NCBI GenBank assembly: GCA_963770895.1
Contig: CAVYRF010000002.1
Coordinates: 224,001 to 288,000, forward strand
Length of the DNA stretch: 64,000 bases
Direction of reading: 5' to 3'
From: an uncultured Acidobacteriota bacterium
Lineage (GTDB): Bacteria; Acidobacteriota; Thermoanaerobaculia; Multivoradales; UBA5704
This document shows positions 43,201 through 48,432 of this stretch, piece after piece (the stretch's first letter is position 1; each line of letters starts with the position of its first letter). The notes beneath the pieces are model-generated. The model was not told where the DNA came from. It made no database searches and saw nothing but the letters and a program-made list of their open reading frames with translations. The position numbers and the translations under genes were made by a program.

Positions 43201-46145
43201 GTCTCCTCGCCTGGATCCAGCGCCGCGAGCGCCCGGCGGTCGGTCTTGCCGTTGGCGGTCAACGGCAAGGCCGCCAACAGGGTCACGGTCGCGGGCACCA
43301 TGTGCTCGGGCAGCCGGCCGCGCAGGCCGGTACGCAGCAAGGCCGCCAGCCCGGCCGGCGCCGGCGGGCGCGGCACCACGAAGGCCGCCAGTCGCCGGTC
43401 TCCCGGCGCCGGCTCGCGCACCACCACCGCCGCCTCCGCGACCTCCGGCGCGGCGAGCAGCGCCGCTTCGATCTCGCCCGGCTCGATGCGGAAGCCGCGC
43501 ACCTTCACCTGGCCGTCGGCGCGCCCCACGTAGTCGAGCCCGCCGCCAGCCCGCCGGCGCGCCAGGTCGCCGCTCTTATAGAGCCGCGCGCCGGGCGTGC
43601 CGCGCCAGCCGCTCCAGGGATCGGGCACGAAGCGCTCCGCGGTCAGCTCCGGCCGTCCCAGGTAGCCGCGGGCCAGTCCGGCGCCGCCCACGTACATTTC
43701 GCCAGGGGCATCCGGCGCCGCCGCCCGGCCGTCACGGTCCAGCAGGTCGACGGTCAGATCCGCCAGCGGCTGGCCGATCGGGCTTCCCGCCGGGCCCTCC
43801 CGAGCGAGGTCCGCGGCCAGCAGCTCGTGCCAGGTGACGTGGACCGTGGTCTCGGTGATGCCGTACATGTTGACCAGGCGGGTCGCCAAACCGGGCGTTT
43901 CCAGCCAGCCGCGCGCCAGCGCCGGCTCCAGCTTCTCGCCGCCGAAGATCACCCAGCGCAGGGACGGCAGGCTCTCGCCGCGGGCGGCCAGGTGGGCGCT
44001 GAGCTGGGCGAAGGCGGACGGCGTCTGGTTGAGCACGGTCACCCGCTCCGCGGCGAGCAGCGCCGCGAACGCCGGAGGCGTGCGGCTGACCACGAACGGC
44101 ACCACCACCAGGCGGCCGCCGAAGGCGAGCGCGCCCCAGATCTCCCACACCGAGAAGTCGAAGGCGCAGGAATGGAACAGCGTCCACGTGTCGTCCGGCC
44201 CGAAGTCGAAGTGCGGCGCCGCGGCGCTCAACAACCGGGCGGCGTTGGCATGGGTCACCGCGACACCCTTCGGGCGGCCGGTCGAGCCCGAGGTGTAGAT
44301 GACATAGGCAAGGTTGGACGGCTGCTCCAACCGCCTCGCAGCCAGGGGGGAGGGACCCTCCGCCCGCTCGCCCACCGTCACCAGGGGGATCGAAACCGGC
44401 AGCGCCGCGGCAAGGCCGGCGTCCGCGACCAGCAGGCGCGCGCCCGCGTCGGCGAGCACCCATGCCAGGTGCTCCGTAGGGTACCCGGGATCGAGCGGCA
44501 CGTAGGCGGCGCCGGCCTTGAGCACCGCCAGGAGAGCGACCACCAGCTCCAGCGACCGCGCCAGGCAGACCGCGACCAGCGTATCGGGGCCCGCGCCAAG
44601 CTCGGTCAGTCGCGCCGCCAGGCGGTTCGCCCGCTCGTCCAGGACGCCATAGGTCAGCGTCACCCCCTCACAGGTCAGCGCCGGCCGCGCCGGCGCGCGC
44701 TGCGCCTGGGCAGCGAACAGCTGGTGCACCAGGAGGCCGCCGTCCAGGTCCGCGGCGCCCTGCCCCGGCTCGTGCAGCGACGCCTCGCTTTGGGCGGCAG
44801 CAACGATCGAGATCTGACCCAGCGTCCGCCCGGCGTCCACGACCAGCTCGCCCACGAGCCGTTCCATCTGCGCCAGCAGCCACGCCGCGGTCCCAGGCGA
44901 CAGCCGATCCAGGTCGAAGGCGAGTTGCAGCACGATCTCGCCATCCGGCGCTTCCGTGACGCCCAGCGACAGCGGCAAGCCGCCGCCCGGCAGCGCGCGC
45001 GCCTCGCTCATGGCGAGGCCGCCGGCGGCCGGCGGCGTGGCGAAGCTGCGGAAGGTGTAGAGGATCTCGAACAGCGCCGCGCCGGGCGGCAACTCGCTCC
45101 AGGCCTGGTGCTGCGGCGGCAGAGCTGCCGCGAAAACCTGCGCCGCCACCTGCTGCGCCTGGAGGCCGGCCAGCCAGGCGCTCACCGTCGCCGCCGGCGG
45201 CAGGGCGCAGCGCACCGGCACGGTGGTGCCGCCAACGCTGCCGACTTCGCCAACGCCGCCGGCGCTGCCGAACAGCACCTCGCTCCTGCCGGTCCAACGT
45301 CCGAGCAGCAGCGCCCAGGCGCCCTGCGCCAGGATGTCGACGCTCAGGCCGTGCCGCGCCGCGAAAGCGCGCAGCGCCGCGCCGGCAGGCGCCGGGAGCA
45401 CCGCTTGGCGCCAGCCCATTCCGGCGCCGGTCGCGCGGCGCTCGCCCGGCAGCACGAGCGGCTCCGTGAAGCCGCGCAGGGCGTCACGCCAGAACGCTTC
45501 GGCGGCGTCCAGGTCGAGCGCCTGCCGTTCACCCTCCTCGCGGCGCGGCGCCGCGAGCCGCGGCGGCCGCCCCTCGCGCCAGGCGCCGTAGATCTCCAGC
45601 GCTTCGCCGGCCAGCAACGCCAGGGACCAGCCCTCGGTCACCAGCTGGTGGCCCGTCACGATCAGCCGGAACCGGCGCTCGGCGACGCGGATCAGCAGGG
45701 CGCGGACCAGAGGCGCCGCGGCCAGATCGAAGCCGCGCTGCCGTTCCGCCGCCAGCCACTCCTCCGTCCGGTCCGCGGTCGCTGCCGCCGCCCCCCGCTC
45801 GTCGATTTCCGGGATCGCCGGGGTCGCCCCGGTCGCGTCAATCGCCTCGGTCACCTCGATCGCCGCCGTCACCCGCGGGCTGACGACCCGCTCCGGCTCC
45901 TCGACCCCCTCCCAGGCGAACGCGGTGCGCAGCGCCGGATGGCGATCGACCGCCGTCTGCCAGGCGCGAGCGAACAGTGCGCCGTCGAGATCTCCCGCCA
46001 GCAGGCAGGTCATCTGCTCCGCATACGCCGCCGGCTCGGGCCGGTAGAGGCCCTGGAAGAGGAGCCACGCTTGCAGCGGCGACAACGGCGCCCGATCCTG
46101 CCCGGCCGCGATCTCAACGGTAGCGTCCGTCAACACGTCACCCAT
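13254..46145 (-). CDS. Nine-module NRPS (10,963 aa): C*-A-T, 5x(C-A-T), C-A(nMT)-T, C-A-T-sulfotransferase, C-A-T-TE
   Basis: Nine TSGS/TTGxPK A3 loops, nine GG(H/D/N)S carrier motifs, eight LCL-type C domains (PLSFxQxRLW; HHxxxD), a MT ([16 protein letters not shown]), a ST ([14 protein letters not shown]) and a TE (GWSAG). Start ATG 46145 follows GAGGAGG and overlaps the upstream gene by 8 bp. Confidence 0.95.
   Translation of the reverse strand: [10963 protein letters not shown]
17290..18140 (-). other. Sulfotransferase domain inside the NRPS, between T8 and C9
   Basis: [33 protein letters not shown] (5'-PAPS loop), VDKTTTY and [12 protein letters not shown] (3'-phosphate motif). Confidence 0.88.
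21132..21173. repeat. 42-bp in-frame palindromic insert in C8 (copies at 25821-25862 in C7 and 32343-32384 in C5)
   Basis: GCCGGCCGACCGCGATGGCCGGCCGGCACTCGCCG... adds 14 aa between FDLxxxP and LLRG; absent from C3, C4 and C9. Confidence 0.85.
21980..23300 (-). other. N-methyltransferase domain inserted in A7
   Basis: [36 protein letters not shown] and NELSRFRYD, located between the A8 and A9/A10 motifs. Confidence 0.9.
34866..34945. repeat. In-frame tandem repeat in C4 (about 3 x 27 bp, AVGDAGAVG)
   Basis: Repeated CCGACAGCG / CCGGCATCG 9-mers. Confidence 0.8.

Positions 46146-48432: not shown

Follow-up and report, generated by a model that had tools for sequence, protein, structure and literature searches.

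A free-standing condensation domain with a gutted adenylation stub, the candidate detached end of a lost synthetase subunit, in an uncultured Acidobacteriota genome

We analyzed a 64,000-nucleotide stretch of DNA (the window; positions 224,001 to 288,000 of contig CAVYRF010000002.1, assembly GCA_963770895.1) from an uncultured Acidobacteriota bacterium, in which a gene encoding a 764-residue protein (46138..48432) directly precedes the gene for a non-ribosomal peptide synthetase (NRPS) of 10,963 residues (13254..46145). Coordinates are those of the window, and features lie on the minus strand unless stated otherwise. The 764-residue protein, here called C-A*, is composed of a condensation (C) domain and a gutted adenylation (A) domain. 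Our preferred explanation, to which we assign a probability of about 0.55, is that its gene is what remains of an upstream NRPS subunit, whose final portion, a DCL-type C domain and a vestigial A-core stub, has become detached. The subunit of relatives ends in thiolation (T), epimerization (E), C and A* domains, and the next subunit, with overlapping stop and start codons, begins with a dead C domain (C1) ahead of A(Thr)-T. The chain bound to the upstream T domain would be epimerized, and the intact C domain would then join the D-configured peptidyl chain to the Thr residue carried by the first T domain (T1) of the following protein. Neither A* nor C1 would be catalytic; both would be remnants of a module that was lost or duplicated, retained for folding or spacing. 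In the genome under study (G000) and three metagenomic relatives the upstream modules would be gone, and in G000 C-A* would be left on its own TTG start behind a lanthipeptide operon.

An intact condensation domain beside two wrecks

The Pfam condensation family (PF00668) matches residues 3-462 of the free protein (47047..48426; E 1.7e-80) over the full length of the domain, and motifs C1-C5 are intact. The catalytic motif HHAILDG (residues 145-151; 47980..48000) agrees with the HHxxxDG consensus and is the same in 6/6 orthologues. An AlphaFold2 model calculated from a 38-sequence alignment has a mean predicted local distance difference test (pLDDT) score of 78, with values of 85-95 for the C domain, 70-88 for residues 480-610 of A*, and 46-69 for residues 610-700. 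The state of the A domain is quite different when it is aligned with the intact A domains of the neighboring NRPS, in that motifs A1, A2, A6 and A7 are retained but the A3 SGST P-loop and about 150 residues over A4-A5 have been lost. The Pfam AMP-binding family matches residues 481-608 (positions 1-140 of the 384 in the profile) and a short A6-A7 stretch, and neither PP-binding nor AMP-binding_C gives a Pfam match in the free protein. The N-terminal piece of A* (residues 481-608; 46609..46992) contains A1 (LTYAELD) and A2 (LRAGGAAVPVD). It is followed by a middle part (residues about 609-685; 46378..46608), the least conserved, with the A4-A5 deletion site and an A3 remnant that reads LALIAPAS--RPPGLMLSH, and by a C-terminal piece (residues about 686-756; 46165..46377) with A6 and A7 (YRTGD). 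Because A* ends before A8, there is neither an A subdomain nor any carrier domain; the P-loop, A4-A5 pocket, A8 hinge and A10 lysine of a functional A domain are not found. A* is more similar to the fifth A domain of the NRPS than to the first (A1).

The stop codon of the free gene overlaps the ATG of the NRPS by 8 base pairs (ATGGGTGA; 46138..46145), and contigs of runs X1 and X2 bridge this junction. Both the gene start (48133-48768) and the overlap (45911-46190) are bridged without indels by short-read contigs assembled from runs of two studies, among which the source sample of the assembly itself may be included. An in-frame stop lies 5 codons 5' of the TTG. A sequencing-error frameshift at the TTTT run (48433-48436) was considered and rejected; contigs from X1, X3 and X4 read through it indel-free, and the TTG start is retained for this reason.

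The NRPS has the order C1-A(Thr)-T, five C-A-T modules, C-A-T with a methyltransferase within its A domain, C-A-T, a sulfotransferase, and C-A-T with a terminal thioesterase (TE), as assigned with Pfam and our own profiles. Its first domain, C1 (44781..46109), is a full-length C-like domain that matches the McyB C domain of the PDB over its whole length (180 bits) but has degenerate core motifs. The segment in register with HHxxxDG reads HQLVTEG (NRPS residues 166-172; 45630..45650), so that the first His is kept, the second is replaced by Gln and the Asp by Glu; C4, C5 and C6 are eroded as well. The second His is absent from C1 in 5/5 orthologues, the other four reading HLLVADG, HLLMAEG, HLLVAGG and HLLVIGG, and the Asp position varies (E, D, E, G, G). 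According to Rausch et al. 2007 (PMC1894796), the second His is the essential residue of the motif. The nearest relatives of C1 with an intact motif, P0124 and P0125 (44-47% identical), read HHLVVDG. C1 is therefore a C fold lacking the second His, as defines a non-catalytic C-like scaffold. The A domain that follows (P-loop to the GGDSI serine motif of T1; 43038..44294) has specificity residues DFWNIGMVHK, a code that we take to denote Thr.

To place the two C domains we searched this genome (8.16 Mb, 3 contigs) with our own profile, which gave 297 C-family hits in 80 open reading frames (ORFs), and built a tree of the 272 full-length C-family domains. The free C domain and C1 belong to a single 19-member clade with support of 1.0, in which 8 members lie directly behind a domain called E-type by its similarity to a bona fide E domain, 9 are N-terminal, and 2 follow a T domain. 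Moreover, the best PDB matches of both are the N-terminal DCL domains of McyB, PvdL, BacC, SrfA-C and TycB; for the free C domain McyB (8hlk) gives E 9e-106, with SrfA-C (2vsq) and TycB (9bfd) also among the best, and the LCL domain TycC6 only 73 bits. Clade context and PDB matches together make the DCL-like assignment sound, the free C domain grouping with post-E domains and not with the LCL or starter types. The preliminary description of this DNA, made from the sequence by a model, had noted an intact DCL-type C domain, a gutted A domain without T, an 8-base-pair overlap with the NRPS and a DCL-like but degenerate first C domain, and all of these points are borne out. An origin of this arrangement by tandem C-A duplication is neither supported nor excluded, the free C domain and C1 being only 36% identical.

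Orthologues and the selection acting on each domain

Six orthologues of C-A* (71-85% identity) all have the same deletions in A* and a stop at the same position after A7, and the frame is open in every one. Homologues at 52% identity or less are ordinary full C-A(-T) modules, but this cannot be said of the close orthologues, which share the gutted A domain in all six cases; the decay must therefore be old. We searched 40 relatives and then 92 family genomes, scoring 25-26 candidates in each so that misses are likely, and found the gene in 3/92 genomes, namely G000, G005 and G041 (= G108). In G041, a 5,791-residue ORF (32978-50350 of contig DATARD010000216.1, C28) has the order kinase-like N-terminus-C-A-T-C-A-T-C-A-T-C-A*-T-E-C-A*-stop. 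Its terminal C-A*, behind T-E, is 76-79% identical to the free protein, and it holds a second, older C-A* (63% in C) in which T and E are still present. The orthologue of the C1-A-T protein (motif HLLMAEG) lies 14.4 kb downstream and is 56% identical to, and colinear over 3,300 residues with, the NRPS in the window. The 14.4-kb island that separates genes adjacent in G000 and G005 (G041:C28, about 18.6-33 kb; L001 12258-22226) encodes an AAA/DUF4143 ATPase and a TOTE conflict-system primase-helicase (PF22548). In G005, a metagenome-assembled genome (MAG) from the window's own genus, the upstream protein likewise terminates in E-C-A*, and GTGA forms the overlap between its stop and the start of the C1 orthologue (HLLVADG). 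An E domain thus lies directly upstream of C-A* in these two genomes but not in G000, where lanM and a 378-base-pair spacer take its place. This fusion of orthologous C-A* behind T-E or E at the end of larger NRPS proteins supports the suggestion in the preliminary description that a longer assembly line has left these domains as relics. Because DCL domains normally need an E domain upstream, we infer that the fused state is ancestral.

Free-standing forms are also known from metagenomic entries in the protein database. Three are full length (P0003, P0004 and P0005; 761-801 residues, with alignment identities of 81-85%) and one is a fragment. The three start at the same place and end in ...A(N/H)G before the stop, a tail that would fit the same stop/start overlap. 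Although the four free-standing sequences differ by 15-21%, all of them retain the core motifs, the start position and, judging from the tails, the stop/start overlap. A metagenome scan for the gene context of P0003-P0005 gave no match over 47% identity, and a search for C1 fragments gave P0138 and P0139 (62-65%), which are on contigs of lengths other than those of P0003-P0005. The scar is common to six sequences from at least two genera of uncultured Thermoanaerobaculia. As judged by sequence comparison, the decay of A* is old and shared, and the junction between C-A* and C1 is conserved, with a canonical context behind an E domain.

The layout in G041 also bears on a very different role, in which C-A* in these relatives is a terminal domain that frees the chain to a soluble nucleophile or cyclizes it, the adjacency of the next NRPS being a matter of gene order. 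We regard this as very improbable. It would account for an upstream NRPS in G041 that has no TE, ends in C-A* and is followed by unrelated genes over the next 14 kb, and free-standing or terminal C domains using soluble amines are known, VibH being an example given in the review PMC10510592. In both G000 and G005, however, the stop of C-A* still overlaps the start of the C1 subunit, G000 has no upstream line from which a chain could be released, and the presence of a dead C1 before A(Thr)-T in 5/5 orthologues would be left unexplained.

Selection distinguishes the domains. Nei-Gojobori estimates of the ratio of nonsynonymous to synonymous substitution rates (dN/dS) for the free C domain are 0.23 against G041 and 0.34 against G005, and a three-taxon estimate from G000, G041 and G005 assigns 0.21 to the G000 branch and 0.24 to the G041 branch. 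Control values are 0.27 for A1, 0.31 for T1 and 0.48 for the second C domain of the NRPS. Values for A* are 0.43-0.52 overall and 0.54-0.78 in its middle part, and those for C1 are 0.47-0.62. Among the four free-standing proteins the C domain is 83-91% identical and the middle of A* 65-81%, and the HHAILDGWS segment is invariant. The free C domain is under purifying selection, with dN/dS of about 0.2, on a par with the working A1. It is conserved as an enzyme and C1 as a non-catalytic domain; conservation of A* is partial, most likely in the role of a structural partner of C.

The main rival of our explanation is that C-A* is inert, the mere trace of an upstream subunit that has disappeared, translated just because of its position in the operon. 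The NRPS would then start with free-amine Thr1, and C1 would be a dead structural cap for A1. We consider this unlikely, but it is the alternative to be taken most seriously. No donor or partner is found in the window or among the E-terminated ORFs of the genome, the free protein has no N-terminal docking extension, A* is clearly dead, large insertions are tolerated in both domains in G005, and partial C and A remnants abound in G000. It is difficult to reconcile an inert scar, however, with a dN/dS value on the G000 branch as low as that of A1, with the motifs, start and overlap kept over the four free-standing sequences, or with a frame that is open in 6/6 orthologues.

The missing donor and a possible role in trans

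As the preliminary description had it, no NRPS, acyl-ligase or acyl carrier protein (ACP) gene lies upstream within the window, and the next genes are lanM and lanA; this was confirmed with our profiles, Pfam and TIGR03898. No A, T or C domains other than those of the free ORF and the NRPS are detected in the window by our own profiles. The lanM stop is separated from the free gene by a non-coding spacer of 378 base pairs (48433..48810), and no remnant of an E domain is recognized in it by nucleotide alignment, blastx or three-frame Smith-Waterman comparison with the E-C linker of G041, for which the scores (21-23) are no better than the means for shuffled sequences (22-26). A scan of 48300-48900 for consensus promoters and terminators gave 0 hits. 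P0003 has 21 in-frame codons ahead of its C domain (MELRNCTEEVPADVWPAIENG), to which the segment 48433-48514 is a counterpart in the +1 frame (LRNCTEELPAEVWPVIEGA), offset at the TTTT run that the contigs confirm. These codons could be the last trace of an E-C linker, although their similarity to G041 is not significant. Elsewhere, G000 encodes 12 E domains, whose identity to the one fused with C-A* in G041 is 50% at most. An E-terminated partner NRPS elsewhere in the genome would have spoken against the split initiation unit of the preliminary description; there are four E-terminated ORFs in the genome, each in a cluster with its own DCL-clade C domain.

A free C domain with no visible peptidyl donor could also have been re-purposed as a starter that N-acylates Thr1 in trans from an acyl-CoA or acyl-ACP of primary metabolism, in which case no donor gene would be needed nearby. 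The free C domain is indeed the first NRPS domain, and the first catalytic one, of its operon, and it stays conserved without a peptidyl donor. In addition, at least four other NRPSs of G000 begin with a DCL-clade C domain with no adjacent E-terminated ORF (C2:3677359, C1:893718, C2:4324192 and C2:5389727, the last with such an ORF downstream only). Nevertheless, this reassignment is improbable because starter domains group with the LCL type, and DCL domains with the dual E/C type, according to Rausch et al. 2007 (PMC1894796), and the free C domain falls in the DCL clade and not on the starter/LCL branch so defined. Moreover, the orthologues sit behind E domains, and the window has no acyl ligase or ACP gene.

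Our explanation, that C-A* is the detached end of an upstream subunit, leaves the present function of the C domain to be considered. Since this domain is still conserved, it probably still condenses something onto Thr1. In this view it is the intact C domain that would actually catalyze the first condensation onto Thr1, acting on T1 and probably still working in G000. The preliminary description had proposed that the free C domain acts in trans on Thr1 with the pseudo-A domain and C1 as docking scaffolds. The first part of this proposal remains the most plausible function, given the intact and selected C domain and a C1 lacking the second His in 5/5 orthologues, but a docking role for A* or C1 finds no support. 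A complex prediction for residues 300-764 of the free protein with residues 1-470 of C1, run without controls, scored 0.00 and speaks neither for nor against an interaction, and the Pfam scan of the window gives no candidate for a tailoring enzyme that C1 might recruit.

Several observations weigh against this explanation. Canonical modules use a C domain beside their own A-T, so that the use of T1 by a C domain on another polypeptide would depart from the rule. No E-terminated NRPS, ligase or carrier gene is present within the window, and the donor was not found. COM docking peptides are located in the N-terminal residues ahead of trans-acting DCL domains; the free protein, however, has no short N-terminal peptide of this type and begins one residue ahead of the C-domain alignment. 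Solved trans-acting DCL domains carry 8-11 more N-terminal residues in the PDB alignment, residue 2 of the free protein aligning with residues 9-12 of SrfA-C, TycB and McyB, and P0003 alone is extended, by 21 residues. No conservation is seen at the N-termini of the C1 proteins. In G005, long low-complexity insertions interrupt both C and A*, and dN/dS of the free C domain on the G005 branch is 0.55. Ratios of this kind are compressed in a genome of 74% GC and would not register upstream genes that were lost recently. Finally, the upstream NRPS of G041, a short-read MAG, is a mosaic whose segments have their orthologues in different G000 clusters and may be partly chimeric; its details are for that reason to be trusted less than the two independent sightings of E-C-A*.

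More tentatively, C-A* may be a portable junction catalyst, that is, a stub-stabilized DCL domain that provides the first condensation in trans for an NRPS beginning with a scaffold C domain and that can be fused to, or cut from, different upstream lines. If so, the donor would come from a subunit encoded elsewhere or be a non-NRPS thioester, and a natural module would be split between C and A over two proteins with vestigial domains at the seam.

Neighboring genes, similar layouts and known systems

Upstream on the same strand, the LanM protein has DUF4135 and LANC_like domains and the LanA precursor is of the mersacidin family (TIGR03898, 71 bits against a cut-off of 23.5; core GGAITTALGCTMHTFGQWASCGCPV), which together define a class II lanthipeptide system directly behind which the free gene lies. 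The lanM/lanA genes (48811-52424) are followed outward by genes for an M19 dipeptidase (52574-53848, plus strand) and a 627-residue protein (54713-56596) whose C-terminus is a protein-L-isoaspartate O-methyltransferase. Within the NRPS, T1 has the motif GGDSI (43038-43052), which is usual in carriers feeding E domains, yet the next C domain looks LCL. A methyltransferase (PF08242 and related families; 22803-23102) interrupts the A domain of module 7, and a sulfotransferase domain (PF13469, E 1e-26; 17487-18134) lies between T8 (GGNSI) and C9, in-line sulfotransferases being unusual in NRPSs.

Several modules of G000 have an intact C domain and then a His-less or partial C-like domain before A-T, either in cis or across a protein boundary, so that a non-catalytic C-like domain in this position is evidently tolerated. 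Junctions at which an ORF ending in an intact C domain is followed by one with a His-less or partial C start before A-T are seen at C2:3901916->3920779, C1:1615244->1607396->1601770->1590552, C1:462918->470885, C2:3713507->3723418 and C1:2147992->2157626. Full-length C domains without the second His make up 8/42 of those at N-termini and 3/176 of the internal ones. Many His-less C-like domains of this genome form a separate clade of LPxLxAD type (support 0.95), two members of which follow ORFs with a TauD dioxygenase (PF02668) fused after the last C domain. These look like the beta-hydroxylase/interface-domain systems of the antiSMASH 8 paper (PMC12230676), and they are a different thing from C1. 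The first C domain of the ORF at C2:3692799-3713993 (ORF residue 639), a member of the DCL clade, reads WSSPLLLFDGWS with both His residues missing; it follows the E-terminated ORF C2:3684307-3694701, at a junction expected to need a working C domain. An 839-residue ORF at C2:4103374-4105890 (minus strand) shows the same A-fragment pattern as C-A* (profile positions 2-171 and 321-393) and likewise stops just past A7, but it was set aside as an A domain with a large insert. The insert of about 440 residues, presumably a luciferase-like monooxygenase from its appearance by eye, has its best in-genome matches in stand-alone ORFs of about 390 residues.

Were the C domain to work across the protein boundary on T1, it would show an assembly line surviving module loss, with one C domain kept as catalyst and the neighboring C and A wrecks as structural filler. 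An NRPS subunit would then be reducible to a single trans-acting C domain, which would bear on the choice of sites for cutting and rejoining NRPSs in engineering, and automatic cluster prediction would start the peptide wrongly. Were C-A* instead a relic, it would be a dated example of NRPS decay, with a scar common to six sequences.

TycA/TycB, SrfA-B/SrfA-C and McyA/McyB likewise have a DCL domain at the N-terminus of a separate polypeptide. In systems of the TycA/TycB type, working A and T domains belonging to the same module come after this C domain, a docking peptide stands before it at the N-terminus, and the neighboring gene encodes the E-terminated donor. Here, however, A is gutted, T is absent, no E-terminated neighbor exists, and a second C domain, a dead one, opens the next protein. 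The X domain of glycopeptide synthetases is a non-catalytic C-like domain. The siderophore interface domains (PMC12230676) resemble C1 in being full-length C-like domains without the catalytic His just before A; C1, however, differs from X and interface domains in belonging to the DCL clade and not to the His-less LPxLxAD clade of this genome. The X* region of complestatin (PMC1894796) similarly consists of a C-type domain and an A domain that has undergone large insertions and deletions and is interpreted there as the vestige of a lost module, but the C-like domain is itself degenerate, does not condense and stands at the end of the line, whereas the C domain next to the A wreck here keeps all catalytic motifs and it is the next domain that is a dead C. 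The fimsbactin protein FbsE also has a truncated, inactive A domain beside working domains, although it retains a carrier (PMC11661926) that is loaded in trans by another A domain, and the free protein described here has no carrier. Two C-type domains precede a single A-T in module 3 of the icosalide synthetase as well, and the upstream C domain must act, as is proposed here, on a residue held by a T domain past the second one (PMC10510592). Both icosalide domains are active and lie on one polypeptide, and the second is of the starter type; in the present case the second is dead, the two are separated by an A stub and a protein boundary, and both belong to the DCL clade. The arrangement is a new case of known NRPS oddities, namely vestigial domains, trans-acting C domains and split modules, and is most useful for the question of where modules can be split.

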